Assembly: GCA_963741955.1 (NCBI GenBank)
Contig: CAVUKB010000005.1
Coordinates: 1,120,001 to 1,184,000, forward strand
DNA length: 64,000 nucleotides
From: an uncultured Acidobacteriota bacterium
GTDB lineage: Bacteria; Acidobacteriota; Thermoanaerobaculia; Gp7-AA8
Reading direction: 5' to 3'
In this document: positions 1-14,231 of the stretch, piece by piece
Layout: each line of letters opens with the position of its first letter
Position numbering within the stretch: position 1 is the stretch's first letter
Program-made: the position numbers and the translations under genes
Notes under the pieces: model-generated
Told to the model about the DNA's origin: nothing
The model's input: only the letters and a program-made list of their open reading frames with translations
Database searches by the model: none

Positions 1-240
1 GCCAAACAGCTCGCAGACCAGGCAGTGCTCCGTGCCAAGGCACGCCTTCTGGTTCGCCGACGGATCGCACGGCTCTCCACCAAGCCCGCGCACCAACACC
101 TCGAACCACCAGCGGATCGAGCCCAGAAGGCCAGTCGTGATGAGGCGGTTGGCGTTCCTCGACTTCGCTGTACTCGCGTCGCCGGTCCAGACGTCGGTCA
201 GCGCCTGCAGTTCGTACGTCCGTGCGCCCGAATTCGTCAT
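1..240 (-). CDS. cmr1: Type III-B CRISPR RAMP protein Cmr1, N-terminal 80 aa (runs off the window edge)
   Basis: Not in the ORF track. Manual translation from ATG at 240: MTNSGARTYELQALTDVWTGDAST...RLITTGLLGSIRWWFEVLVRGLGGEPCDP...C...HCLVCELFG. This fits the Cmr1 pattern (LTxxWTG, GxxGSxRWWxExxxRGLGG, Cys cluster, LFG). The start overlaps the cas3 stop (ATGA). Confidence 0.85.
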   Translation of the reverse strand, partial: MTNSGARTYELQALTDVWTGDASTAKSRNANRLITTGLLGSIRWWFEVLVRGLGGEPCDPSANQKACLGTEHCLVCELFG

Positions 241-3044
241 TTCGGTCTCCCAATCGCTTCAGCCACCTCGCTGGGCCTGGTGCACGCGCTCGGGTTCTCG
301 CTCGCGCGCCAGTCGGCGATGCGGACGAGCGCTTCCAGGTATGCCAACGTAAACGGACCGAGATGGCGCGGCTCCGTCTCGGGCACGACGCCGGCGTCGC
401 TCTTCTCCTCCGGCCGCCAGGGTCCGAGAAGATCGGCAACGAGGCCCGTCCAGCCATGTCCGGTCAGCACGAACTCGCTCCCCTCCCAGCGTCCCTCCGC
501 CCCGTCCTTTGTGATCGAGAAATCGAGCGGCCACCGGTCGTCGCCGATCGCGAGTGTGTCCGGCTCGCTGCGCACTCCGAAGACGTCGTCGCCCTCGCCA
601 GTCGTCGAACGAAGCACGGTACGCGCCTTGCCGTGATGCGTCGCAGCCAGATAGACCGCGAGTGCCGGGTAGGTGGCACCGCCATCGCGGTACTTCCGCC
701 ACATCGCGAGCGCAGAGGCGACCTCGTGGCGAAGGCCCGGACGAAACTGGACGTGCCCGGCCCAGTGAACCGCGGAGATGGCACGCAGTGAGCTCAGGCC
801 GGCCTCGTCGAGCTTGTCGTCGATCGCCCAACGAAGGCGTATGACCGCTCGACGACCGCGTCGGCGCGCTTCATCAGGGAGGGAAAGCGCTGTCGGTCGG
901 AGCCGGGCGACCGTCTCCCGTACAGCGGTTGCATCGCCCACGACGTCGACCGCCAACACGCGCGGGCTCTTGGCAAGCAACGCGTCGGGTATGCCGGAGC
1001 GATCGGGCAACGCGGTCTGCCACTGCGGATGCGCCTTGCCGAGATCGTGCAGGCCCGAAGCTTCGACGACGGCGGAACGCGTGTCCGCAGTCAGTGAGAG
1101 CGCATCACACAGCCTCTCTGCCTCACGGCGTGCGTCCTCGAGGTGGTCGGCGAGACGCGACCAGTAGCCGACCTCGGTCCATGCATCGTCTCTCAGAGTC
1201 GCGCCGCGCCCGGCGCGCGGCACTTCGGCGAGGATGTTCCGCTTGTCTCCCGTCCAGCCTTCGCTGGCGTCATAGCCTCCGACATCGCGCTTGAGCATGA
1301 CGAGCATCCCGGGGCGGATGTCCCAGTGGTTCACGCGCTCCCAGCGGTCCGCCTCGTCGTCCCACAGCCACGCTTTGCCCCTGCTGCTCTCCAGCATCTT
1401 CCGGACGCGGACGAAGGAGACGGGACAGCCCTCCTTCGCGGGTTCCAGCAAGGGACCGTCGAGGTCTTCGCCGCGCGGAGGGTTGTCGCCCGACCAGTCG
1501 CGCCAGAACACCGTCACGTCGAGATCGGGATCGGTGCCGCGCACGAACGCGCTGACGTCGGTGAACCCGCCGTGGACATCGCGCTCTGTCGAGAAGAGTC
1601 CATGCACATCGAGGGCGCGCGGCAGCGGGCTGGGCCTCGGCTGAAGTGCTTCGCCCAGCTCCTCTGAACATTGCGTGCTCAGATCGGTGATCGCCTGCGC
1701 GAACGCCTCTCTCTGCGAGAGGGGCGCGAACTCATCGACGAGTTTCCTGGCGCGCTCGATGTCGGAGGCCTCGTAAGGCCCAATGCGCTCGACCTTCCTG
1801 GCTGCGCTCTCCCTGGGTGTCTCCCAGATCCAGGCACGAGCGTCCTGGTCGTCTCCCTTTCGATTCAGGCGACCGAGACGTTGAAGCATAGAAGCCCAGG
1901 GCGCGAGCTCCGTCCAGAGGCGATGCGCCGAGATGTCCACCCCCGCCTCAATGACTTGCGTGCTCACGCAGATCAGGCCGGGGTCGTCCCGCGGTAGCTC
2001 GCCTGCTTTGCGGCTGGCGTCGAACTCGAGAAGGCGTTTCTCGTGTCGGGCGCGATCTTCGCGCCGGAACCGCGAGGTCAGCAGAACCTTGTGACCCACC
2101 AGCGACATCGCGCGGAATACCTCGCGCGCCATATCCACAGTGTTGCAGATGACGAGCGAGAGCGTGCCCGCCGCGTGCTTTTCCACCACGGCCTTCGCGA
2201 TGGCTTCGGGCGTGATTGCCCCGGACTTCACCGCGCCTCGCTTCTTCGCGCTAGTGATTTTCGCGTCCGCCGCAGTCGGCCGCCACCACTCGACGAGGCG
2301 CTTGGCGTCTCGCCACCACTGGAGGTTCTGATCGTTCTCGAGTGTGGTCGTCAGCTTCCCCTCGAATGCGACCTGCTCCGGCGACACTTCGCCAATCCCC
2401 TCGCGCGTTCGGTCGGTGGTGCTCAGAAACTTCGTGCCGACGGTGGCACTCATCCACGTCGTCAGGGACGGCTTGAGCGTGGGAAACCGCTTCCTGCGCA
2501 TCCAATCGAGCTGCGAAGTCGTCCAGAGGCCCGGCCCCATGAGCTGAACCTCGTCGATGAGCCAGCGGCAATCGTTGTTGAGCAGGCCGAAGTGCATCGG
2601 CCACTCGAAGCGACTCATCGCGTAGCCGCGATTGAGCGCGCGCGACAGAAGCTGGTCCTGCGTGCCAATGAGCACCCAAGGTTTCTCGGGCAGCCGGACC
2701 CACTCCTCTTCGATCGACCCACCCATGAGCTGAAAGACTGCGATGTCGATGTCGGGCTGCAAAGCTTTGAAGTACGCCCGGAGCCGGTCTGCGGTTTGCG
2801 TTACGAGGCTTCGCATCGGTAAGCAGTACACGACGTGCAGCGGCTCTGGCTGATTCATGATAAACCGACGCCAGGCCCACGCGAGAACCACCTCTGTTTT
2901 CCCGAGGCCCGTAGGGACGGGGAGAATGTCCGGCAGACCACCGGCGGCAACTTCGAGCTGCCAGAGGTAGGGCTGGAGACCGCCCGTCGCCATCGCGAAG
3001 AAGTCGGCGAACGTTTCAGAGGAGCCAGTTGCCAGCGTGTTCAT
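237..3044 (-). CDS. cas3: CRISPR-associated helicase/nuclease Cas3, type I-G (I-U)-like with C-terminal HD domain
   Basis: SF2 motifs PTGLGKT, IDEVQ, MSAT, VSTQVIEAGVDIS, QRLGRLNR. C-terminal HD motifs LADH, LHDLGKA, RHE, THHG, IADWRAS. AAGGAG RBS before ATG 3044. Confidence 0.92.
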   Translation of the reverse strand: MNTLATGSSETFADFFAMATGGLQPYLWQLEVAAGGLPDILPVPTGLGKTEVVLAWAWRRFIMNQPEPLHVVYCLPMRSLVTQTADRLRAYFKALQPDIDIAVFQLMGGSIEEEWVRLPEKPWVLIGTQDQLLSRALNRGYAMSRFEWPMHFGLLNNDCRWLIDEVQLMGPGLWTTSQLDWMRRKRFPTLKPSLTTWMSATVGTKFLSTTDRTREGIGEVSPEQVAFEGKLTTTLENDQNLQWWRDAKRLVEWWRPTAADAKITSAKKRGAVKSGAITPEAIAKAVVEKHAAGTLSLVICNTVDMAREVFRAMSLVGHKVLLTSRFRREDRARHEKRLLEFDASRKAGELPRDDPGLICVSTQVIEAGVDISAHRLWTELAPWASMLQRLGRLNRKGDDQDARAWIWETPRESAARKVERIGPYEASDIERARKLVDEFAPLSQREAFAQAITDLSTQCSEELGEALQPRPSPLPRALDVHGLFSTERDVHGGFTDVSAFVRGTDPDLDVTVFWRDWSGDNPPRGEDLDGPLLEPAKEGCPVSFVRVRKMLESSRGKAWLWDDEADRWERVNHWDIRPGMLVMLKRDVGGYDASEGWTGDKRNILAEVPRAGRGATLRDDAWTEVGYWSRLADHLEDARREAERLCDALSLTADTRSAVVEASGLHDLGKAHPQWQTALPDRSGIPDALLAKSPRVLAVDVVGDATAVRETVARLRPTALSLPDEARRRGRRAVIRLRWAIDDKLDEAGLSSLRAISAVHWAGHVQFRPGLRHEVASALAMWRKYRDGGATYPALAVYLAATHHGKARTVLRSTTGEGDDVFGVRSEPDTLAIGDDRWPLDFSITKDGAEGRWEGSEFVLTGHGWTGLVADLLGPWRPEEKSDAGVVPETEPRHLGPFTLAYLEALVRIADWRASENPSACTRPSEVAEAIGRPK

Positions 3045-3286
3045 TCTCTCCTTCACACGTAACGGGGCGGAACGATCGTATCAGTATTCCATTCCGCGTC
3101 ACCGCGTTGCAACGCGGCGCCGCGAAATCTCATATCGTTTGGGCTTTTCGAGTTCCTACCGCAGCGGCCTCGATTCTGGCAGACGCACGTTTGACGAGCA
3201 GGACGAGCAGCCCGTACAGCGAGCTGTCGCGAAGAATTGCGTCGTAAACGCGGTGCGGAGCCCCAAGCAACGGGATCTCCATGATT

Positions 3287-3396
3287 AAGTTCGGCCACGA
3301 GCGTTCTCGCGAGTTCCTCCACATGCCTCGAACGTACTCCCCTCTCCTGTCAGTTTCTGTCATTCGCGATTCTTCTTTCCCGAGCCTCGAGCCTCG
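3287..3396. repeat. Short copy (~110 bp) of the WYL 3'-end/downstream segment
   Basis: Essentially identical to ~7121-7231 (aagttcggccacgagcgttctcgcgagttcctccacatgcc...gagcctcgagcctcga). Confidence 0.9.
3331..3362 (-). promoter_or_regulatory. Putative WYL-activated promoter, copy upstream of cas3
   Basis: Minus strand reads TGACAG-AAAC-TGACAG-N10-TACGTT, the same layout as the PafBC motif TGTCRG-N10-TAnnnT. Confidence 0.5.
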
Positions 3397-3493
3397 ACTC
3401 TCCTTCGACGGGAGCGGGGAGCGGCGCGAGTGGGTATGAGCGATCTTCCGTCGGTTCGATTCACCAAACTTTTGGGGCATCGGTTCGAGCAAC

Positions 3494-3904
3494 GAGTCAC
3501 GCCGGACGGACGGGCTGCGTTTCGAAGTGCGCTCCAGGGTCCTTGAAAGTTCGGCCACATCTGAAAGTTCGGCCACGAGCGTTCTCGCGAGTCTTCCCAC
3601 ATGGCGCGAACGTACTCCCCTCCCCTGTCAGTTTCCGTCATCCGCGATCCTTCTTTCTCGAGCCTCGAGCCCCGAGCCCCGAACCCCGTCTCCCGCTCGT
3701 CGACTCTCGCGCTTCCTTCGCGGCGGGACGGGAGCGGGCCGGGGTCGCGTCGGATGCGCGCGCGGGTTTGCGCGAGTGACGCTCGTGCGCGGCGGCCGCG
3801 CCGTTCGCGATCTCCGCAACGCGATCGACGAGCTCCGGAGGCGCGATCGCCTGCGCGGCGCCGCCGAACGTCACCACCCATCGCGCGATCTCCTCGAGGT
3901 GCGC
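3494..3904. repeat. Diverged ~410 bp direct repeat of the WYL 3' end plus downstream DNA
   Basis: Aligns by eye with ~7068-7460 and encodes the same WYL C-terminus (HLEEIARWVVTFGGxAQAIAPPELVDRV). Contains a local duplication of gaaagttcggccac. Confidence 0.92.
3609..3640 (-). promoter_or_regulatory. Putative WYL-activated promoter, middle copy
   Basis: TGACGG-AAAC-TGACAG-N10-TACGTT. Spacing is conserved despite substitutions in and around the motif. Confidence 0.45.
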
Positions 3905-3959
3905 CCTCCGGGCTTACCCGGGGCTACCTTCCGGCACGCCTCCGGCGTGCCTCGGCGGT

Positions 3960-4092
3960 CTTTCTCCCGTTTCAGGCTCACGGATTGTGATTTTGTACGA
4001 GGGATCTCCTGCGCTTCCTCGAGCGTGAGATGGAAGGCGAGGTCCTCCGAGAGCCGCTCGGCATTCCGCACTCGTAGGCGAGCCCCGATCAT
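3960..4092 (-). pseudogene. ORF6N-like DNA-binding domain remnant
   Basis: RNAERLSEDLAFHLTLEEAQEIPRTKSQSVSLK resembles the ORF6N motif RNxERFPEDFxFQLTxEE...LRSQIVTLK. The N- and C-terminal parts are absent. Confidence 0.5.
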
Positions 4093-4138
4093 GCTTCTTC
4101 CCTATGTTTTCTATTCTCTCGACCGGTGGCGACGAAGC

Positions 4139-5245
4139 TCATCGCTTCTTCCTCCTGCTCACTTTCTTCTTCCTCGCGGCTGAACCCTTCACCGGCTCGA
4201 CGTTCTTTGACCCGTCGTCCAGCCGCTTCACCTCCTCCAGCGCGTGGTCGAAGTCGCTCGTCGGCCGGTCGGCCTCCAGCCTGCGTCGCTCCGCCTCGTG
4301 TCTTTCGAACTCTGCATGAGCATGCTGCCCGGCAAGCTCGTGCGACACGGCCCCGGCATGCTTCAGGACATTCCGCTCGTTGAACTGAAGAAAGGCGTCC
4401 AGTCGCGTAACCCATTCGGCCATGTGCATCGGCTTTTTCCGTCGCGCCTGGTCTTCGGCAAAGTCGAGGTACATCGTCACGATGCGATTGAGCTCGCGGA
4501 GCTCCTCCTCGTTCAGGTAGTTCTTCGCAACTGTGACGTCGGCTTTTCGGATCGGGCCGTACGGCGCGTTTTTCCAGGTGGCCAGCCCCATGTGGGGGCG
4601 GGAGGCATCTGCACGCTGCACGATCACTTCCGCAGCGGTCCGCCCGTGAATCGCCCAGTGCAGCTTGTTCTGTACCGTTGCAAAGAAGGTCTGGCTGAGG
4701 GGGTGGGCAGGATCGTAGTCGATGCTGGTCGCGTAGATGTCCGTGATCTTCTGGTAGAACATCCGTTCCGAGGCGCGGATGTCACGAATGCGCTCGAGCA
4801 GCTCATCGAAGTAGTCGGCGCCCAGCGTGCGGCCTTCCTTGAGGCGTTCGTCGTCGAGGGTAAAGCCCTTGACCAGCAATTCACTCAGCCGCGCCGTGGC
4901 CCACTGCCGGAACGCCGTGCCGCGCGCCGAGCGGACCCGGTAGCCCACCGCCAGAATGGCGTCGAGATTGTAGTGCTCGATGCTCCTGGTGACATCGCGG
5001 GTGCCCTCGCGCTGAACTATTCGGAAACTCCGAATAGTTGCCTCCGGGTCGAGCTCGCCATCCGCATAAATTCCGCCCAGATGCTCGTTCACCGTCGGGA
5101 CCGACACCTGGTACAGCTCCGCAATCAGCCGCTGCGACAACCACACCGTCCGCCCGTCGAGGCGCACCTGGAGGCGCGCTGCGCCGTCCTCGTAGATGAG
5201 GATCTGGCCGGACTCGGGAGGACGCGCGTCACCTGTCATCGCCAC
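4139..5245 (-). CDS. RhuM-family (virulence RhuM) DNA-binding protein
   Basis: TVWLSQRLIAELYQ, YNLDAILAVGYRVRSARGTAFRQWAT, YFDELLERIRDIRASERMFYQKITDIYA, FFATVQNKLHWAIHG, AKNYL. This family is often found in type I R-M loci. Confidence 0.9.
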   Translation of the reverse strand: MAMTGDARPPESGQILIYEDGAARLQVRLDGRTVWLSQRLIAELYQVSVPTVNEHLGGIYADGELDPEATIRSFRIVQREGTRDVTRSIEHYNLDAILAVGYRVRSARGTAFRQWATARLSELLVKGFTLDDERLKEGRTLGADYFDELLERIRDIRASERMFYQKITDIYATSIDYDPAHPLSQTFFATVQNKLHWAIHGRTAAEVIVQRADASRPHMGLATWKNAPYGPIRKADVTVAKNYLNEEELRELNRIVTMYLDFAEDQARRKKPMHMAEWVTRLDAFLQFNERNVLKHAGAVSHELAGQHAHAEFERHEAERRRLEADRPTSDFDHALEEVKRLDDGSKNVEPVKGSAARKKKVSRRKKR

Positions 5246-5378
5246 GCTCCCTGCGTTTCGAATCCTCTCACTCGGGAGAGGTCGTCACAGATCGTGACCA
5301 CCTTCCGGGGGGCGGCGATCTCATCCCGTGGGGATGTTGGTCGTAACTCGTTCAGTCCTCCGCTGAAGGTCCTCTGCA

Positions 5379-6941
5379 TCAGAATCCGAGCTCCTTCAGG
5401 CTCTTCGCGATCGCTTCGTCGAGCTTTACCGCCTCGGCCTGCTGCTCGCGCAGCGTCGCGGTGAGGCGTTGCATCTTCTCCTCGAATGGCTCGTCGTCTT
5501 CCTGGGCGGTCTCGGCGCCGACGTAGCGACCCGGCGTGAGGACGTGGCCATGCTTGCGGATATCGTCGAGCGTTGCTTCCTTACAGAAGCCGGGGATGTC
5601 CTCGTAGTCTCCGGCATCGGAATCGCCCCGCCAGGCATGGTAGGTGCCGGCGATCTTTTCGACGTCCTCATCCGTCAACTCACGATGGGTACGGTCGATC
5701 AGGGTTCCCATCTTTCGGGCATCGATGAAGAGGGTATGGCTACGGCGGTCGCGGAATCGGTGGTTCTTCTTGTCCCGTGTCAGGAACCAGAGGCAGACGG
5801 GGATCTGCGTGGAGTAGAAGAGCTGCCCCGGCAGGGCGACCATGCAGTCGACGAGATCGGCCTCGATGATGTTCTTCCGGATCTCACCTTCCCCCGACTG
5901 GTTCGACGACATCGAGCCGTTCGCGAGGACGAACCCCGCGATACCCGTCGGGGCGAGATGGTGAATGAAGTGCTGCACCCAGGCGTAGTTGGCGTTGCCC
6001 GCGGGGGGGGTGCCGTAGGCCCAGCGCTTGTCGTCCTTCAGCAGCTCGCCGCGCCAGTCGCTGTCGTTGAACGGCGGATTCGCGAGGACGTAGTCGGCCT
6101 TGAGGTCGGGGTGCTGGTCGTTGTGGAAGGTGTCGCCGTGGGCGATCTGTGCGTCGATACCGCGGATTGCGAGATTCATTTTCGCGAGACGCCAGGTCGT
6201 GTAGTTCGACTCCTGACCGTAGATCGAGATGTCGCCGAGCCGCCCGGAGTGCGCCTCGATGAACTTCTCGCTCTGCACGAACATCCCGCCGGAGCCGCAG
6301 CATGGATCGTAGACGCGCCCCTTGTACGGTGCGAGCATCTCGACCAGCACGCGGACGACATGACTCGGCGTGTAGAACTGGCCCCCCTTCTTCCCCTCCG
6401 CGCTCGCGAACTGCGCGAGGAAGTACTCGTACACGCGACCGAGCGTGTCCTTCGCGCGAGAGGCTGCGTCGCCGAGGGCGATGTTGCTCACGAGATTGAT
6501 GAGCTGCCCGAGGCGATCCTTGTCGAGACCGGGCCGGGCATACTGCTTCGGCAGCACGCCCTTGAGTGACCGGTTGTCCCGCTCGATCGCCTCCATCGCG
6601 TCGTCGACGATCTTCCCGATGGTCGGCTGCGGCGCGCTCGCCTTCAGGTGCGACCAGCGCGCCTCCTTCGGCACCCAGAAGATATTCACCGCGCGGTACT
6701 CGTCCGGATCCTCCGGATCGGCCCCTTCGGAGACCTGCACCTCGAGCTCCTCGCGTTTCGCCTGGAACGCGTCGGAGATGTACTTGAGGAAGATCAGCCC
6801 GAGGACGACGTGCTTGTACTCCGCCGCGTCCATGTTGTTCCGCAGCGCGTCGGCCATCTGCCAGAGCTTCGCCTCGTAACCGATGGTCGCGGCAGAGCTT
6901 TCCCCTCTCCCGTTCGGCTTACCGGACTTCCGTGCTGCCAC
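5379..6941 (-). CDS. hsdM: Type I restriction-modification methyltransferase subunit M
   Basis: [49 protein letters not shown], catalytic NPPF. GTG start at 6941 with GGAGGA RBS. Confidence 0.95.
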
Positions 6942-7038
6942 TGATCCTCCCGTTCGCCACAGGACTGAGATCGAAATTCGGAACCCAGCTTCGCATTCTA
7001 GCGGATTCATCTTAGGAGTGACCGGGAGGGGGAAAGTC

Positions 7039-7158
7039 CTACCCCCCGCGCGAAGATTTCGAGTTTCGAGTCACGCCGGCCGGACGGGCCGCATTGCGAA
7101 GAGCGTCCATGAGTCCTTGAAAGTTCGGCCACGAGCGTTCTCGCGAGTTCCTCCACAT
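7039..7158 (-). CDS. Putative leaderless 39-aa small protein ([30 protein letters not shown]...)
   Basis: ATG lies 6 nt after the TACGTT -10 box. Compared with the copy starting at 3602, four substitutions in ALRNA are synonymous third-position changes. Confidence 0.4.
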
Positions 7159-7164
7159 GCCTCG

Positions 7165-7196
7165 AACGTACTCCCCTCTCCTGTCAGTTTCTGTCA
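7165..7196 (-). promoter_or_regulatory. Putative WYL-activated promoter overlapping the WYL stop codon
   Basis: TGACAG-AAAC-TGACAG-GAGAGGGGAG-TACGTT. Confidence 0.5.
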
Positions 7197-8264
7197 TTCG
7201 CGATTCTTCTTTCCCGAGCCTCGAGCCTCGAGCCCCGAGCCTCGTCTCCCGCTCGTCGACCCCCGCGCATCTTTCGCGGCGGGGCGGGAGCGGGCGGGGG
7301 TCGCGTCGGATGCGCGGGCTGGTTTGCGCGAGCGGCGCTCGTGCGCGGCGGCCGCGCCGTTCGCGATCTCCGCAACGCGATCGACGAGCTCCGGTGGCGC
7401 GATCGCCTGCGCGTCGCCGCCGAACGTCACCACCCATCGCGCGATCTCCTCGAGGTGCGCGAGCGTCACCCGGTATTCGAGCCCGCCGTCGGGAAGACGC
7501 TCGATCCGCTCTCCTTCGTGATGACGCGCGTTGCCGACGAGCGGCGCGAGCTTCGCGTCGAAACGGATCACCATCTCTCGCGGCTCCTCACTGCGATAGA
7601 GGCTCCACGCATGGCCGAGGAATTCCTCCAGGTCGAATCCCTCCGGCGCGGCGAACGTCTCCTCGCGCATCCGCACCGCGGCGACCCGGTCGAGCCGGAA
7701 TGTCCGCGCCTCCTTCGCTTCGTGACACCACCCGAGGAGGTACCACGCCTCCGCACGGTGAAAGAGACTCCACGGATCGACGCGGCGCCAGCGGCGCTTT
7801 CCCGACCGGAGCGAGACGTAGTCGATGTCGGCCGAGCGGTGCCGGATCATCGCAGTCTCGAGCCCGGAGAAGGCAGACCCGGCGAGCGCGCCGGAGCGGT
7901 CGAGCCCCGCGAGGGTCGCGACGCCCGCATCGTCATCGGGATGGAGCGCGTCGAGCTTCGCGCCGAGGATCTCGAGACGGCGCGCGAGCGTGGAGCTGCG
8001 GCGCAGCGCGCGACTGTCGAGCGCGAGACGGAGGAGCGACCACTCGAGCGGCGAGAGCGAGAGGGGCCTCAGCGTCGCACCTTCGATCAGCCGGTAGCCG
8101 CCGTCTTCATGCACGATGGGAACGCGCAGCTCCTCCAGAACCGCGAGGTCGCGGAACATGGTCCGCTCCGAGACGCCGAAGCGCGCGGCGAGATCGGCGA
8201 CCGTGTAGCGACGATGCCCGCCGAGGAGCTGCACCAGATCGAAAAGACGCGAGGCGCGGGACAT
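7194..8264 (-). CDS. HTH-WYL-WCX transcriptional regulator (PafB/PafC/YafY-like)
   Basis: N-terminal HTH (TVADLAARFGVSERTMFRDL), WYL motifs (RRVDPWSL, AWYLLGWC, RTFRLDRV) and a WCX-like tail. AAAGGAG RBS before ATG 8264. The ORF-track extension into the repeat array is spurious. Confidence 0.93.
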   Translation of the reverse strand: MSRASRLFDLVQLLGGHRRYTVADLAARFGVSERTMFRDLAVLEELRVPIVHEDGGYRLIEGATLRPLSLSPLEWSLLRLALDSRALRRSSTLARRLEILGAKLDALHPDDDAGVATLAGLDRSGALAGSAFSGLETAMIRHRSADIDYVSLRSGKRRWRRVDPWSLFHRAEAWYLLGWCHEAKEARTFRLDRVAAVRMREETFAAPEGFDLEEFLGHAWSLYRSEEPREMVIRFDAKLAPLVGNARHHEGERIERLPDGGLEYRVTLAHLEEIARWVVTFGGDAQAIAPPELVDRVAEIANGAAAAHERRSRKPARASDATPARSRPAAKDARGSTSGRRGSGLEARGSGKKNRE

Positions 8265-8373
8265 GGGTCTCCTTTCCCGGGAGGGTTGCGCCGGATGCAA
8301 TCTATCCCACAGGAGGAGTGTCGGGGAAGGCGATTTCCCTACCCCCCCGGCGTGGTTTTTCACCTCGCCTCGC

Positions 8374-10963
8374 CGCCTTTCGGGTTTTCGCGGAGAAGAC
8401 GCGGATCGAGTTGCGCCTCGACAACTCGCCTCTCGCAACTCGCAGAGAGGTCGTTGGCTGCGGCCTCGAATCCAACTTTCAGGGTTGCCCCTCACCCTTC
8501 CCTCTCCCCGAACGGCGGTCGCCGGCTGAAGGTCGTGAGTGCGGACGGGGAGAGGGTGGAGCCCGCCGAGTGGGAACGGGTTGCGCTTCGTGGGGGTGGG
8601 CGGGGGTTGCGCCCTTCGGGGTTTTCGGAGAGAAGACGCGGATCGAGTTGCGCCTCGCCAACTCGCCTCCCGCAACTCGCAGAGAGGTCGTTGGCTGCGG
8701 CCTCGAATCCAACTTTCAGGGTTGCCCCTCACCCTTCCCTCTCCCCGAAGGATGGTCGCCGGCTGAAGATCGTGAGCGCGGACGGGGAGAGGGTGGAGCC
8801 TGCCGAGTGGGAGCGGGTTGCGCTTCGTGGGGGTGGGCGGGGGTGGCGCCTTTCGGGTTTTCGCGGAGAAGAGCGGATAGAGTTGCGCCTCGACAACTCG
8901 CCTCTCGCAACTCGCAGAGAGGTCGTTGGCTGCGGCCTCGAATCCAACTTTCAGGGTTGCCCCTCACCCTTCCCTCTCCCCGAACGGCGGTCGCCGGCTG
9001 AAGGTCGTGAGTGCGGACGGGGAGAGGGTGGAGCCCGCCGAGTGGGAACGGGTTGCGCTTCGTGGGGGTGGGCGGAGGTGGCGCCCTTCGGGGTTTCGCG
9101 GAGAAGGCGCGGATCGAGTTGCGCCTCGACAACTCGCCTCCCGCAACTCGCAGAGAGGTCGTTGGCTGCGGCCTCGAATCCAACTTTCAGGGTTGCCCCT
9201 CACCCTTCCCTCTCCCCGAAGGGCGGTCGCCGGCTGAAGGTCGTGAGTGCGGACGGGGAGAGGGTGGAGCCCGCCGAGTGGGAACGAGTTGCGCTTCGTG
9301 GGGGTGGGCGGAGGTGGCGCCTTTCGGGTTTTCGCGGAGAAGAGCGGATAGAGTTGCGCCTCGACAACTCGCCTCTCGCAACTCGCAGTGAGGTCGTTGG
9401 CTGCGGCCTCGAATCCAACTTTCAGGGTTGCCCCTCACCCTTCCCTCTCCCCGAACGGCGGTCGCCGGCTGAAGGTCGTGAGTGCGGACGGGGAGAGGGT
9501 GGAGCCCGCCGAGTGGGTACGGGGTGCGCTTCGTAGGGGTGGGCGGGGGTGGCGCCTTTCGGGTTTTCGCGGAGAAGAGCGGATAGAGTTGCGCCTCGAC
9601 AACTCGCCTCTCGCAACTCGCAGAGAGGTCGTTGGCTGCGGCCTCGAATTCAACTTTCAGGGTTGCCCCTCACCCTTCCCTCTCCCCGAAGGGTGGTCGC
9701 CGGCTGAAGGTCGTGAGTGCGGACGGGGAGAGGGTGGAGCCCGCCGAGTGGGAACGAGTTGCGCTTCGTGGGGGTGGGCGGAGGTGGCGCCTTTCGGGTT
9801 TTCGCGGAGAAGAGCGGATAGAGTTGCGCCTCCACAACTCGCCTCCCGCAACTCGCAGAGAGGTCGTTGGCTGCGGCCTCGAATCCAACTTTCAGGGTTG
9901 CCCCTCACCCTTCCCTCTCCCCGAAGGATGGTCGCCGGCTGAAGATCGTGAGCGCGGACGGGGAGAGGGTGGAGCCCGCCGAGTGGGAACGGGGTGCGCT
10001 TCGTAGGGGTGGGCGGGGGTGGCGCCTTTCGGGTTTTCGCGGAGAAGACGCGGCGGCGCGGATAGAGTTGCGCCTCGACAACTCGCCTCTCGCAACTCGC
10101 AGAGAGGTCGTTGGCTGCGGCCTCGAATCCAACTTTCAGGGTTGCCCCTCACCCTTCCCTCTCCCCGAAGGATGGTCGCCGGCTGAAGATCGTGAGCGCG
10201 GACGGGGAGAGGGTGGAGCCCGCCGAGTGGGAACGGGGTGCGCTTCGTGGGGGTGGGCGGGGGTGGCGCCTTTCGGGTTTTCGCGGAGAAGAGCGGATAG
10301 AGTTGCGCCTCGACAACTCGCCTCCCGCAACTCGCAGAGAGGTCGTTGGCTGCGGCCTCGAATCCAACTTTCAGGGTTGCCCCTCACCCTTCCCTCTCCC
10401 CGAAGGATGGTCGCCGGCTGAAGATCGTGAGCGCGGACGGGGAGAGGGTGGAGCCCGCCGAGTGGGTACGGGGTGCGCTTCGTGGGGGTGGGCGGGGGTG
10501 GCGCCTTTCGGGTTTTCGCGGAGAAGAGCGGATAGAGTTGCGCCTCCACAACTCGCCTCCCGCAACTCGCAGAGAGGTCGTTGGCTGCGGCCTCGAATCC
10601 AACTTTCAGGGTTGCCCCTCACCCTTCCCTCTCCCCGAAGGATGGTCGCCGGCTGAAGATCGTGAGCGCGGACGGGGAGAGGGTGGAGCCCGCCGAGTGG
10701 GAACGGGGTGCGCTTCGTGGGGGTGGGCGGGGGTGGCGCCTTTCGGGTTTTCGCGGAGAAGAGCGGATAGAGTTGCGCCTCGACAACTCGCCTCTCGCAA
10801 CTCGCAGAGAGGTCGTTGGCTGCGGCCTCGAATCCAACTTTCAGGGTTGCCCCTCACCCTTCCCTCTCCCCGAACGGCGGTCGCCGGCTGAAGTTCATGA
10901 GTGCGGACGGGGAGAGGGTGGAGCCTGCCGAGTGGGAACGGGTTGCGCTTCGTGGGGGTGGGC
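8374..10963. repeat. Tandem array of 11 x ~235 bp multi-hairpin units
   Basis: gagttgcgcctc recurs at about 8408, 8645, 8880, 9116, 9351, 9586, 9821, 10065, 10300, 10535 and 10770. Each unit contains CCCCTCACCCTTCCCTCTCCCCG...CGGGGAGAGGG. Confidence 0.97.
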
Positions 10964-11016
10964 ACCCCTCCGGGGTGCGTCGCTAATGAGGGGTCAGGTC
11001 TTTACCGGCTGCGGAG

Positions 11017-11679
11017 CTACCAGGCGGAATCGCTCTTCAGCGCGAGCCGGAGAGCGACCGTCCAGGGACGCCTGGGCGGGCTCCCGGGCGAGGCCGGCTG
11101 GAGCCTTTCTCCGATCATCGTCGTATCGCACGGCGTCCCGGTGAAGACCTCCGGAGGTATGGTCGCGATCAGCTCACCGGACGAAGGATCGACGCGTGCC
11201 TTCAGCGACACGTAATCGGTGAGTGACTGATCGTCGATGCAGACCGCGGTCTCGGCGACGAGGTCCCGGTGATACCCGGCGGGAACGGCTCTCCCGAAGT
11301 CCTCCGGGACCGCGACTCTCACTTCGATCGGGGCCGGGTCTCCACCGAGAATCACGATGGTGTAGAACGTCGCCGAGGAGGCGCGGGCGTACTGCCCGCC
11401 GAGAAGATCGGGACTGCTGCGGATCTGCCGGAGAAACGAGCGCTTCTCCCGTTCCGAGATGGTCCGTCGCACCAGAATCGTCACTTCCCCTGAAGAGGGA
11501 TGCGGCTCGACGGTGGCAGTGATCGCTCCGGGAATGGTCGCGGTACCCCCTCTCGGAGTGACGGAAGCCTCCGCCGTGACGACGTCGGGTTTCTCCTTCT
11601 TCGCCGCGGAGGCGAGCGAAGGAAACGCGAGAGTCGCGGCGAGCGCGATGCCCGCGAGCGCGAGAAGGTCTCGTCTCAC
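11017..11679 (-). CDS. Secreted hypothetical protein
   Basis: GTG at 11679 after GGAGGAGG. Signal peptide MRRDLLALAGIALAATLAFPSLASA. Confidence 0.65.
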   Translation of the reverse strand: MRRDLLALAGIALAATLAFPSLASAAKKEKPDVVTAEASVTPRGGTATIPGAITATVEPHPSSGEVTILVRRTISEREKRSFLRQIRSSPDLLGGQYARASSATFYTIVILGGDPAPIEVRVAVPEDFGRAVPAGYHRDLVAETAVCIDDQSLTDYVSLKARVDPSSGELIATIPPEVFTGTPCDTTMIGERLQPASPGSPPRRPWTVALRLALKSDSAW

Positions 11680-11756
11680 GCCTCCTCCTCCCCGCGAAGT
11701 GAATCCGTTCTCCTCGGCGGTCGCGCGAGGCGAGTGCCGGCATCGCGTCCCGCCGC

Positions 11757-14231
11757 TCAAATCGGATCTCCCGGAGGAACCGGAAGCGGCGCGATCTTCT
11801 TTCGCGGCGCGACCGGGCGGCGGAGGAACTCCTCGATGTCGTCGCGGATCGCGGCGCGGTGCGCGCCATCGACCGCGTCCGCCGTCGTGGACGTCTTCTG
11901 CAGGTCTGACCCCAGGCGCCGGAGCGCGTCGGTCGCGATGGCGCGCACGTCGGATGCGGCATCTTCGTTCGCCGCCAGCCCCATCAGGTCGTCCACCGTG
12001 ACCCGCTGCACCGCGCGCGCGATCGCATCGCCGTAGGAGTCGGTGACCTTCTCGCTCCAGGTGCGATCGACCAGCGCCTTCACCACCTCCTCGAATCCCG
12101 GGTTCTGCGCGTCCTGGGCGTGAAATTCGATCAGCCGCGCCGCGCGGTGCGGCTCGAGAACTCCCGATACCGCGAGATCCGCTGCGATCGACGCGGCACC
12201 GATCGGATCGAACACCGGATCGGTGCGCGACGGGAATCGCTCCGTCGGCCCTCCCTCCCAGCCGAACGGCACCGGCGGAATGAGCTTCAGGATGCGCGTC
12301 GGGATCCGCAACGAGTCCACCGATACGGTGTCGAGCACCGCCGCGAGCGCGTCGCGCTGCGTCGCCGCCGGAACGATGTGACGGACGTCGGACGGCACCG
12401 GTCCGTTCGGTGTCCGCACGCTGTAGGTATAGAAGAGACCCCCCAGCGACTTGACCGCCGCCTGCAGCTGATAGCGATGATGGAGATAGAGCGGAAGAAA
12501 CTCCGCCTCGAGCTGCGACATCGGCATTCCCGGCTGGAGATTCCCTTCGCCGAAGTGATTCATCGCGATGCGGCGCACGTCCATCTCGTGACGGAGCATC
12601 GCCACCGGGTCCGCGCCGTTGTCCCACAGACTGGCCAGCGGATGCGCCGCTCCTGCCGGCCGCGCGTCTTCGTCGGTGATGAAGAGCATCCCGTGATGGA
12701 TCGCGTCCTCCACGAGCTTCTCCAGTGCGGCATGCTCGTCCGTCCCGGGAGGAAACTGCGTGTATGCGTACGCGATCGCGAACTCGTCGTACGCGCCGAT
12801 CCCTCTCGCATACGCGTTCGACAGATCGAGTTTCCCGTTGCGGATCTCGACCATCGGGGCCGGGTAGTCCATCACCGATGCCCGGCCGTACGTGCTCGCG
12901 GCGAAGTTGTGGGCGAGACCGATGGTGTGGCCGACCTCGTGTGCGCCGAGCTGGCGCAGCCTCGCCAGGGCCATCGCCTTCGCATCGATCGACGGATCGG
13001 CTGCGGCGAGCGCATCGCCGTCGGACGGAGCCGCCACTCCTTCGAACAGCGGCACCAGCCCCTCACCGATCAGGAAATCCTGCCGTACCCGGAGCGATCC
13101 GAGCGAGACGTTCCCCTTCAGGATCTCCCCCGTGCGCGGGTCGACCACGTTCGCGCCGTAGGACCAGCCGCGCGTGGAGCGATGCACCCAGGTGATGACG
13201 TTGTACCGAAGGTCCATCGGATCCGCTCCCGGCGGAAGCATCTTCACCTGGAACGCATTCCTGAAACCCGCGGCCTCGAACGCCTGGTTCCACCACGAGA
13301 TACCGTCCAGCAGCGCACTCCGTACCGGCTCGGGAGTTCCCGGGTCGAGGTAGTAGACGATCGGTTTCACCGGCTCGGACACGGCCGCGCCCGGGTCCTT
13401 CTTCTCCAGACGGAACCGGGTGATCCACCGTTTCTCGATCGGCGCAGTGAGGGGTGATGCGAAGTCGTAGAAGTCCACGCCGTACACCCCGACCCGAGGG
13501 TCGAATGCGCGCGGGTGGTATCCCGGCGGCGGCAGCTCCACCAGGGAGTAGTGCTCGCGTACCGTGATCGCCTTCGGACTCGGCGTCACCTGCTGCACGA
13601 GTCTTCCCGGATTTCCGCTCGTGACGAAAGTGAGCAGCACCTCGACCTCGGTGTTTTTCGGAAAAGCCTTCGTCTGCGGAAGCCACACCGCACTCCGCGA
13701 ATCGTCGAGCGTGTAACTCCCCTGCTTCGTCTCTTTCAACTGATCGGCCACACCGTGGGCATCGCGGACGAAGAACGGCGTCGCATCCACCAGGACCCGC
13801 TCTCCTTCGCTCGCTACGATCGGAAATCCCCACAGCACCGATTCGGCGAACGAATTCGCGACCGCCTGCTGCTCCGCCACGTCACCGGTGAGAGCGCGAT
13901 AGCGGTAGTTCGGCTCCACCATGAGGAGCTTCGGTCCGATGCGCCGGAACGAGACGACGTGCGTCCCGCCGAGCTGGTTGCGATCGAGACCGATCGGGTT
14001 CGATCCGATGCCGGCCGGCAGTGAGACCTGCATCAGCAGCTCCTGATCGAGATGCGGGACCTCCATCAGCAGCTTCCCCTCGCCCGCATCCCAGTAGAGC
14101 GGCACGTAGCCGTCGATCTTCTGCATTCCTCGGGTTGCTGCGGCGACGTCGGTCCCGGGTGGCTTGCTTTCGGCCGCGACGAGAGGCAATGCGAGGATCA
14201 GAGTCAGAAGGGCGATTCCGGTTCGGCGCAT
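11757..14231 (-). CDS. Secreted zinc metalloprotease (DUF5117/DUF4953 Met-zincin)
   Basis: Signal peptide, DPRVG, KPIVYYLD, DPRTGEILKG, HEVGHTIGLAHNF, SVMDY Met-turn. Confidence 0.9.
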   Translation of the reverse strand: MRRTGIALLTLILALPLVAAESKPPGTDVAAATRGMQKIDGYVPLYWDAGEGKLLMEVPHLDQELLMQVSLPAGIGSNPIGLDRNQLGGTHVVSFRRIGPKLLMVEPNYRYRALTGDVAEQQAVANSFAESVLWGFPIVASEGERVLVDATPFFVRDAHGVADQLKETKQGSYTLDDSRSAVWLPQTKAFPKNTEVEVLLTFVTSGNPGRLVQQVTPSPKAITVREHYSLVELPPPGYHPRAFDPRVGVYGVDFYDFASPLTAPIEKRWITRFRLEKKDPGAAVSEPVKPIVYYLDPGTPEPVRSALLDGISWWNQAFEAAGFRNAFQVKMLPPGADPMDLRYNVITWVHRSTRGWSYGANVVDPRTGEILKGNVSLGSLRVRQDFLIGEGLVPLFEGVAAPSDGDALAAADPSIDAKAMALARLRQLGAHEVGHTIGLAHNFAASTYGRASVMDYPAPMVEIRNGKLDLSNAYARGIGAYDEFAIAYAYTQFPPGTDEHAALEKLVEDAIHHGMLFITDEDARPAGAAHPLASLWDNGADPVAMLRHEMDVRRIAMNHFGEGNLQPGMPMSQLEAEFLPLYLHHRYQLQAAVKSLGGLFYTYSVRTPNGPVPSDVRHIVPAATQRDALAAVLDTVSVDSLRIPTRILKLIPPVPFGWEGGPTERFPSRTDPVFDPIGAASIAADLAVSGVLEPHRAARLIEFHAQDAQNPGFEEVVKALVDRTWSEKVTDSYGDAIARAVQRVTVDDLMGLAANEDAASDVRAIATDALRRLGSDLQKTSTTADAVDGAHRAAIRDDIEEFLRRPVAPRKKIAPLPVPPGDPI

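Follow-up and report, generated by a model that had tools for sequence, protein, structure and literature searches.

A type III-C CRISPR-Cas module embedded at the cas3g/cas8g junction of a type I-G operon in an uncultured Acidobacteriota bacterium

Results

A complete type III-C module inside a complete type I-G operon

The stretch of DNA considered here, called the window, comprises 64,000 nucleotides of an uncultured Acidobacteriota bacterium (contig CAVUKB010000005.1, hereafter C5, positions 1120001-1184000; a window coordinate equals the C5 position minus 1120000). Its left end holds the CRISPR (short palindromic repeats that are clustered and regularly interspaced) gene cas3g and the beginning of a type III gene, cmr1, and the 40 kb to the left of the window was also read in the genome assembly (5.44 Mb in 16 contigs, 99.1% complete). 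Taken whole, the locus is a complete type I-G system in which a complete type III-C module is embedded exactly where cas3g meets cas8g. The operon, with every gene on the minus strand, has the order cas3g-[cmr1-cmr6-cas10c/csx11-cmr4-cmr5-cmr3]-cas8g-cas7g-csb2-four-helix-bundle gene-cas4/cas1-cas2, followed by an 82-repeat array (Table 1; gene starts are those of the longest open reading frames (ORFs)).

Table 1. Features of the locus and its upstream flank.
Feature	Window	C5	Strand	Size and supporting matches
hsdM-type N6-adenine methylase gene	5379-7010		minus	PF02384 4.1e-111; PF12161 1.1e-27
RhuM-family gene (not cas)	4139-5245		minus	PF13310 1.1e-117
cas3g, type I-G helicase-nuclease	237-3056		minus	939 aa; first gene of operon
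ATGA overlap, cas3g stop/cmr1 start	237-240		minus	TGA 237-239 shares bases with ATG 240-238
cmr1, 5' part (type III RAMP)	1-240		minus	80 codons, running off the left window end
cmr6		1118514-1119314	minus	266 aa; PADLOC 4e-59
cas10c/csx11		1115560-1118517	minus	985 aa; TIGR02682 281.3 bits (cut-off 248.95); PADLOC Cas10c 1.3e-117
cmr4		1114607-1115563	minus	318 aa; TIGR02580 2.7e-33
Presumed cmr5		1114221-1114610	minus	129 aa; no NCBIfam match; position and tblastn homologues only
cmr3		1113337-1114224	minus	295 aa; PADLOC 9.7e-71
cas8g/csx17		1111103-1113340	minus	745 aa; TIGR04113 3.8e-143
cas7g/csb1		1110007-1111242	minus	411 aa (longest ORF); TIGR02570 5e-10
csb2		1108487-1110010	minus	507 aa; TIGR02165 1.9e-27; PADLOC Cas56g
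Four-helix-bundle gene		1106921-1107841	minus	306 aa; TIGR04258 1.8e-21
cas4g/cas1g		1105223-1106893	minus	556 aa; NF049935 1.4e-216
Presumed cas2		1104922-1105215	minus	97 aa; position and tblastn homologues only
CRISPR array		1098690-1104704	minus	82 repeats of 36 nt

The cas3g product matches TIGR02621 (5e-179, 597.9 bits, cut-off 400) and the PADLOC Cas3g model (9e-214). It has the type I-G layout, in which the helicase core is N-terminal (Pfam DEAD and Cas3-like_C_2) and the HD domain C-terminal (residues ~632-920, Pfam Cas3_HD 1e-5), with the motifs GLGKT at residue 50, DEVQ at 168, LHDLGK at 670 and THHGK at 807. Its stop codon overlaps the start of cmr1, which has a GGGAG Shine-Dalgarno-like motif upstream. 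The 80-codon part of cmr1 inside the window matches RAMP PF03787 (2.9e-9) and Cmr1 TIGR01894 (4e-9, 36.9 bits, cut-off 28.65), and the full gene, encoding 309 aa, reaches C5 1119311, 689 bases left of the window (TIGR01894 1.8e-14). A sequence-only reading of the window had already described the C-terminal HD domain of this Cas3, the ATGA overlap with an 80-codon frame and the Cmr1 motifs of that frame, all of which are borne out by the profiles and by the letters at 237-240. Its further statement that no cas gene lies upstream of cas3 agrees with a Pfam scan of the six ORFs at 3130-7010, in which none was found.

The remainder of the operon supplies both systems in full. Cas8g, Cas7g and Csb2 score above the cut-offs of TIGR04113, TIGR02570 and TIGR02165, with PADLOC in agreement, and they are followed by a Cas4-Cas1 fusion, a Cas2 (recognised by position and tblastn only) and the adjoining array. 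The six III-C genes stand between cas3g and cas8g on the same strand as both, as is seen in embedded defence systems. All seven junctions from cas3g to cas8g are 4-nt ATGA or GTGA overlaps, and a GGAG-like motif lies 7-13 nt upstream of each start.

The sequence-only reading had offered, as one of its explanations, that a III-B module was inserted into a I-G operon; the insertion of a type III module into I-G stands, but the subtype is III-C. It had also named an observation that would speak against a hybrid locus, namely a complete I-G set following the cmr genes together with cas3 homologues that lack cmr neighbours. The I-G set is indeed there, and the homologues lack such neighbours for the most part only (41/51, see below). 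The other explanation offered there, a Cmr complex with a Cas3 at its service, is treated below as an unlikely alternative.

The large subunit is a Csx11-family Cas10 without the HD and GGDD motifs

The module is assigned to subtype III-C, and not III-B, because its large subunit is a Cas10c/Csx11 protein without the GGDD and HD motifs. It matches both the Csx11 model TIGR02682 and the PADLOC Cas10c model, and only Cas10c/Csx11 models; together with the absence of any CARF gene from the locus, this rules out type III-B, the label given in the sequence-only reading. The gene order cmr1-cmr6-cas10-cmr4-cmr5-cmr3 is that of III-C, with the cmr5 place filled by a gene that has no family-model match. 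Among 80 genome loci with Csx11 this order is complete in 55, present as contiguous parts cut by contig ends in 25, and deviating in none.

The same reading had advised checking whether Cas10 keeps its HD and GGDD motifs, and the Cas10c at this locus has neither: GGD[DE] is absent, as it is from 74/75 family members, and there is no HD motif and no HD dipeptide anywhere in the protein. An alignment of 16 diverse Csx11 proteins has an invariant N-terminal motif, WLHMxGKAH, and at the corresponding HxxGK position the 75 Cas10c sequences read HM (74), HQ (one) or HD (none). To judge by motif context and by the HD motifs known from other Cas10 proteins, M28 of Cas10c presumably occupies the position of the HD aspartate. 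According to these alignments, HM without GGDD is an old state shared across the family. No match to the Cas10 palm2 domain PF22335, and no second Cas10 palm domain, was found anywhere in the genome, and the Csx11 profile matched no PDB chain at E values up to 1. An AlphaFold model of Cas10c (pLDDT 69.7, pTM 0.70) has only Cas10 chains (Csm1 and Cmr2) as its best Foldseek matches, at E ~1e-6 and a target template-modelling score of ~0.5.

These features agree with published descriptions. Csx11 has been described as an inactivated Cas10 (PMC3150331), and III-C is counted among the subtypes with an inactivated cyclase, most III-C loci being without arrays (PMC12669027). As a separate observation, the CPVC...CxxC zinc finger of most Csx11 proteins is partly replaced (CPVS ... 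SKSC, residues ~391-420) in the clade to which the window protein belongs (P0003, P0024, P0034, P0044 and P0054; alignment A1, columns ~460-500).

One array and one probable source of CRISPR RNAs

The array repeat occurs at one place in the genome only, in 82 copies. Other periodic k-mers (on C1, C4, C5, C9 and C10) were considered as a second CRISPR array and rejected, being plain tandem repeats in which the 'spacers' repeat too. The genome has one cas1; it has no match to PF01881, the one Pfam model used to search for a stand-alone Cas6; and its only three RAMP matches are cmr1, cmr6 and cmr4 of the locus. Since there is thus one array, one cas1, no PF01881 Cas6 and no RAMP match outside the locus, the two effector sets probably share one source of CRISPR RNAs (crRNAs).

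On the transcribed strand the repeat reads CCTTCCGCTTCCGAAAGGGAGCGGCCCCATTGAAGC, which forms a hairpin of 8 bp closed by a GAAA loop (-14.5 kcal/mol), followed by CCCC and then ATTGAAGC. In the I-G system of Thioalkalivibrio sulfidiphilus, the cut that Csb2 makes in the 36-nt repeat falls 4 nt 3' of the base of its hairpin and leaves a canonical 8-nt 5' handle (PMC9638904). Because the repeat geometry here is the same, Csb2 cleavage should by analogy give the 8-nt 5' handle AUUGAAGC.

Repeats of the same family, with a hairpin, then CCCC, CTCC or CCAC, then ATTGAAGC or GTTGAAGC, lie beside ten canonical I-G relatives (L086, L091, L092, L093, L103, L115, L117, L121, L129 and L140). They also adjoin III-C modules in three unrelated genomes (L021, L040 and L042), and in three further loci (L016, L031 and L063) csb2 is the gene directly upstream of cmr1. 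From the handle and these neighbourhoods we infer that the III-C complex would be loaded with Csb2-processed I-G crRNAs. The 81 spacers are diverse, and blastn-short found no full-length match for any of them within the genome, the self-matches being partial only (17-22 nt, E 5e-4 to 7e-3).

Type III modules recur at the same junction of related I-G operons

A metagenome scan with Cas3g gave 60 loci, some of them duplicates, whose Cas3g is 54-85% identical to the window protein. Nine are too short to be informative (L114, L116, L118, L119, L127, L139, L141, L142 and L144). Among the other 51, cas8g-cas7g-csb2 directly follow cas3g in 41, the canonical arrangement, in which the final 11 nt of cas3g already contain the ATG of cas8g. 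A type III module stands straight after cas3g in six: a III-C module as in the window, then cas8g-cas7g, in one (L123); a III-B module, then cas8g, in one (L110); and a III-D-like module in four (L085, L107, L108 and L113). A KilA-N gene followed by cas8g takes this place in three (L090, L104 and L137), and one locus (L138) has an odd arrangement. The question raised by the sequence-only reading, whether close Cas3 homologues recur next to cmr1 elsewhere, thus has a divided answer, as type III modules (one III-C and one III-B among them) follow cas3g in 6/51 loci but 41/51 are canonical.

In every nested locus the guest sits at exactly the canonical junction, and the ends of cas3g and/or cas8g have been rewritten into new tight junctions; no target-site duplication is visible in the junction sequences. 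L123 has overlapping or near-abutting frames throughout. The guests are as diverged as their hosts: the III-D-like proteins are 67-78% identical among loci, where Cas3g is about 70-80% identical, and the III-C proteins of the window and L123 are 70-89% identical. In some loci type III genes instead stand in tandem after csb2 (L133, probably also L092 and L115), and the III-B proteins of L110 and L133 are 71-78% identical, leaving out a truncated Cmr4 match (87% over 55 residues, at the L133 locus end).

In a Cas3g tree of 48 rows (46 distinct sequences, rows shorter than 650 aa dropped) the loci bearing type III modules are scattered, and each groups with canonical loci as its well-supported sisters (L113 with L091, 100; L108 with L121, 99; L110 with L111, 100; L107 in a clade with L097, 99). 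The tree implies nine state changes, an approximate figure as L114, L116, L118, L119 and L127 were labelled 'none', their downstream gene being unseen. This scatter would reflect either repeated insertion or frequent exchange and loss of cassettes.

The III-D-like guest comprises a small GGDD Cas10, a Csx10-type Cas5-7 fusion, multi-Cas7 proteins and a CARF-HEPN protein, and cas8g follows ~9.2 kb downstream in L108 and L113, L085 and L107 being cut by contig ends. In this guest (L108 12793-21961; also L113, L085 and L107) the Cas10 has 515 aa with GGDD and no N-terminal HD motif, and three large multi-RAMP fusions (685, 629 and 947 aa) match gRAMP models weakly. In L110 the III-B guest consists of Cmr1, a GGDD Cas10b, Cmr3-6, Csx1 and a CARF-RelE protein. 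The KilA-N gene (L090 2887-3768, L104 12775-13662, L137 831-1760) encodes ~295 aa, and its ATG overlaps the cas3g stop.

III-C modules in other hosts

III-C modules are also found outside I-G operons, as expected of an embedded guest: by tblastn, 71/80 III-C genome loci have no I-G gene. In a Cas10c tree the window protein falls in a fully supported clade with L123 (the III-C module nested in I-G), L004 and L005. In L004, a metagenome-assembled genome labelled Polyangiaceae, the III-C module follows hsdR of a type I restriction-modification (R-M) operon and overlaps the hsdR end. This locus (L004 4694-8775), which has the closest genome relative of the window Cas10c, reads hsdS, AAA_13 ATPase, Schlafen/Fic-like gene, hsdR, then cmr1.

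The neighbours were surveyed in the 44 genome loci in which 1.2 kb or more of sequence precedes cmr1, by scanning cluster representatives and assigning the rest by blastp clustering. Upstream neighbours that were identified are on the same strand and mostly 6-50 nt away. They include the SNF2 helicase HmaA (L007, L047, L049, L060 and L062), the HmaC ATPase (L020, L023 and L030), an HmaB-like protein (L015), a type III restriction enzyme, which is a helicase-nuclease (L029), and methyltransferases of DrmMI/type IIG-like (L006) and PglX-like (L037) kinds, as well as csb2, cas4/cas1 and Cas6b in three loci each. Downstream of cmr3 we found the HmaB methylase (L007, L008, L045, L049, L052 and L062), HmaC (L012), a Cas3g-like gene (L057), a DruE-like helicase (L016) and a PrimPol (L080). 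III-C modules are thus often embedded in Hma systems as HmaA-[III-C]-HmaB.

Distribution and selection

The 123 further genomes of this GTDB family gave no Cas3g or Cas10c match at 1e-20, and because of this absence the locus was probably acquired horizontally. Across the phylum, Cas3g scores above the cut-off in 42/401 sampled genomes. Forty of these loci were fetched (G171 and several partial or contig-end places were left out), and cas8g comes next in 19 (17 by tblastn, two by PADLOC). In the other 21 Cas3g is only 25-51% identical and its neighbours were unrecognised by the tblastn queries. A type III module directly after cas3g was found in 0/40, with queries that diverged modules could escape. 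Looser links between I-G and type III occur in L154 (see below) and in L164; in the latter, I-G genes are followed by a Cas10. As far as the searched genomes reach, the nested form appears confined to one I-G clade.

Between the window and L123 the ratio of nonsynonymous to synonymous substitution rates (dN/dS) is 0.17 for cas3g and for cas8g, and 0.08-0.25 for the six III-C genes. By this measure the III-C module is maintained under purifying selection.

Two further arrangements were seen. L154 (G124:C18:11189-26044) has cas3g, a short Cas8g-like gene and then cmr4, cmr5, cmr6 and csx1, which are 65-75% identical to those of the III-B guest in L110; cas10, cmr1, cas7g and csb2 were not detected there, and the locus may be a rearranged or partial I-G/III-B composite. 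In L174 (G470:C8:343900-363806) two same-strand cas3g-like genes flank one cas8g-cas7g-csb2 set over ~10 kb.

Discussion

A probable III-C back-up effector fed by the I-G array

We consider it probable that the III-C module is an embedded, co-expressed back-up effector, which would use the array, Csb2 processing and adaptation genes of the I-G system and cleave transcripts through Cmr4. The thirteen genes from cas3g to cas2 would be transcribed as one or a few transcripts, and Csb2, a Cas5-Cas6 fusion, would cut the array transcript 4 nt 3' of the hairpin to give crRNAs with the predicted AUUGAAGC handle. These crRNAs would load both the I-G Cascade and a Cmr-like III-C complex. The I-G arm would bind DNA in a manner dependent on the protospacer-adjacent motif (PAM), recruit Cas3g and degrade the DNA, while the III-C complex would bind complementary transcripts for cleavage by Cmr4. 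Since Cas10c is without the HD nuclease and GGDD cyclase motifs, binding and cutting RNA are probably all that the III-C arm does. Independent of a PAM but dependent on transcription, it would back up the I-G arm, and embedding would ensure both co-regulation and co-transfer.

Several observations weigh against this proposal. I-G is not obligatory for the III-C lineage in question, as L004 has no I-G genes within its locus. A III-C complex that is HD-less and cyclase-less is without a demonstrated immune output, and RNA cleavage alone may not stop DNA phages. The nested III-B and III-D-like modules keep GGDD and their own CARF effectors, and III-C may work differently from them. Loading of the III-C complex is read from handle sequence and neighbourhood only, and a second array or a Cas6 could have been missed by a search with one Pfam model or be unassembled in a genome of 16 contigs.

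Alternative explanations

An alternative that we regard as unlikely is a functional hand-off, in which III-C is a crRNA-guided transcript sensor that recruits or licenses a neighbouring SF2 helicase-nuclease to destroy transcribed DNA. At this locus Cas3g would be the partner, at others HsdR, a type III Res enzyme or HmaA, and the coupling of cas3g to cmr1 would mark a physical partnership; in a wider form, the cas3g/cas8g junction would be a docking site for interchangeable III-B, III-C and III-D-like modules served by one crRNA supply and one Cas3. The overlap of cmr1 with cas3g in both the window and L123 fits this idea, as does the occurrence, 6-36 nt upstream of cmr1 and on the same strand, of genes for HsdR (L004), a type III helicase-nuclease (L029) and HmaA (five loci). 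A helicase gene is, however, found upstream of cmr1 in only 7/44 loci, the others having methyltransferases, HmaC, csb2, cas4/cas1, Cas6b or unrecognised genes. A Cas10c family without HD (0/75) and nearly without GGD[DE] (missing in 74/75) also fits the idea, and the nested III-B and III-D-like Cas10 proteins also have no N-terminal HD motif, but these two modules carry CARF nucleases and a GGDD Cas10 and hence need no Cas3. All three module types sit right after cas3g and at no other I-G junction, which favours the hand-off, yet a tandem position behind csb2 is also seen for type III modules (L133, L031, L063 and L164). Two published results point the same way as these objections: the I-G Cas3 of T. 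sulfidiphilus joined the complex only when Cas8g was present (PMC9638904), and unrelated defence genes are also commonly embedded at helicase-gene junctions (10.1101/2024.01.29.577857).

It also seems improbable to us that the module is a mobile III-C guest that does not use the I-G crRNAs for immunity, or else an RNA-guided regulator of the cas operon or of host transcripts. III-C does occur in many unrelated contexts (Hma, type I and type III R-M, BREX-like PglX, I-G, Cas6b and cas4/cas1), the absence of Cas3g and Cas10c from the 123 other family genomes suggests horizontal arrival, and in the Cas10c tree L004, a locus that lacks I-G genes, branches within the clade formed by the two I-G-nested modules. 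A regulatory mini-array has moreover been proposed beside an I-B/III-C pair (PMC10120712). Several independent III-C loci nevertheless adjoin I-G-type repeats or csb2, which argues for a real crRNA link, and the gene ends have been remodelled to tight overlaps that are conserved between two loci about 77% identical. Self-regulation is countered by the 81 diverse spacers without a full-length genome match, as expected for immunity.

Both the decay of an inserted, non-functional set of III-C genes and a chimeric assembly are highly improbable and were rejected, for although Cas10c is without known catalytic motifs and the zinc-finger cysteines are partly lost in its clade, pseudogenisation is ruled out by six open frames and their dN/dS, the HM and no-GGDD state being old and family-wide, and a chimera is ruled out by the same gene order on the separate metagenome contig L123, the locus itself lying within a 1.47-Mb contig.

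Relation to known systems

Composite type I/III loci, the sharing of arrays between them and the embedding of defence systems are all already known. The I-G system of T. sulfidiphilus (PMC9638904) has the same C-terminal-HD Cas3, Cas8g/Csx17, Cas7g/Csb1, Csb2 Cas5-Cas6 fusion and Cas4-Cas1 fusion, and a 36-nt hairpin repeat with the same 4-nt spacing and 8-nt handle; it also tolerates extra genes between csb2 and cas4/cas1. The locus described here differs in that six III-C genes part cas3g from cas8g, where the canonical cas8g starts within the end of cas3g. As in published III-C modules (PMC3150331, PMC12669027), the six-gene order is kept, the cyclase is inactivated and the module has no cas6, cas1/2 or array of its own, but here the module lies inside the operon of another system, with overlaps to cas3g and cas8g. 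A family-wide HM in place of HD in Csx11 was not found stated in the available parts of these two III-C papers.

Composite I and III loci likewise combine a DNA-targeting type I system with an RNA-targeting type III module that has no adaptation genes of its own. Examples are the Cst and Cmr locus of Pyrococcus furiosus (PMC4666368), the I-F and III-B systems of Marinomonas mediterranea, for which redundancy against escape mutants has been proposed (PMC5576922), and the adjacent I-B and III-C loci of archaea (PMC10120712). In these composites the modules are adjacent, whereas here type III interrupts the type I operon between cas3 and cas8, with overlaps of the kind seen in coupled genes. Type I-D (PMC7544194, PMC10212523) also unites type I and III features in one locus, including Cas3-family and Cas10-family proteins, but as one chimeric complex with the HD domain on Cas10d and a separate Cas3' helicase, in contrast to the two complete, interleaved effector sets found here.

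The closest formal parallel is 'guilt by embedding' (Payne et al., preprint, 10.1101/2024.01.29.577857), in which one set of defence genes is flanked on both sides by genes of a second multi-gene defence system and shares their orientation. The hosts described there are Hma (defined in PMC8565338), BREX, DISARM and type I R-M, the guests share the host orientation in 96.7% of cases, and co-regulation is proposed as the benefit. Since no more than three embedded genes between hma genes were accepted in that survey, a six-gene module would be missed, and the word 'CRISPR' does not occur in its main text. The present case differs in that the host is itself a CRISPR-Cas system and the guest a type III effector able to draw on the crRNAs of its host. 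In the literature searched, which excluded supplementary tables, we found no case of a type III module lodged between cas3g and cas8g and joined to them by overlaps of the coupling type, no recurrence of three type III subtypes at one junction, and no Hma or R-M operon with an embedded III-C module.

Of the type III subtypes, III-C is the least understood, with a Cas10 that has no cyclase and, as seen here across the family, no HD motif. The locus offers a compact natural test bed for it, with one promoter region, one array, one crRNA nuclease (Csb2), one Cas3 and two effector complexes. Three kinds of type III module stand at exactly one junction of closely related I-G operons, with gene ends re-tailored each time, and the occurrence of III-C in Hma and R-M operons extends embedding to CRISPR effector modules, just as the I-G case adds CRISPR operons to its hosts. 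Annotation pipelines built around unbroken subtype cassettes may divide such loci or label them wrongly. If the hand-off reading were true, the coupling of cas3g to cmr1 would be the mark of a type III effector using a type I or restriction motor to kill DNA.

Further features of the operon and its flank

The four-helix-bundle protein encoded between csb2 and cas4/cas1 has a 'suffix' domain, and its gene contains nine copies of a 9-nt repeat (6933-7038 of L002, the stretch left of the window); L129, too, has a short match to this protein after csb2. The start of cas7g overlaps the 3' end of cas8g by 41-137 nt, in a different reading frame (L002 11103-11242 and 39 related loci, L086-L143). As tblastn similarity to Cas7g starts at query residues 1-28 in 39/39 related loci, this looks like a conserved long out-of-frame overlap.

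Of the six ORFs scanned with Pfam upstream of cas3g, four have no match, including the two small ORFs next to cas3g; the other two are the RhuM-family and hsdM-type genes of Table 1. The hsdM gene shows that the locus belongs to a defence island. A scan of neighbouring ORFs gave neither hsdR nor hsdS, and the gene may encode an orphan methylase or be the remnant of a type I R-M system. In this GC-rich genome a promoter scan gave no sigma-70-like sites, and terminator-like sites are at chance level (14 against 9.7 +/- 3.1, and 1 against 3.1 +/- 1.9). An Rfam scan of window 3000-12000 gave only a sub-threshold match to Acido-Lenti-1 (23.4 bits, gathering score 37). Between hsdM and a Met-zincin gene, at window 8374-10963, lie eleven head-to-tail copies of a 235-bp unit that match at 95%; the unit length is not a multiple of 3, and each copy contains an inverted repeat of the GGGGAGAGGG/CCCTCTCCCC type.

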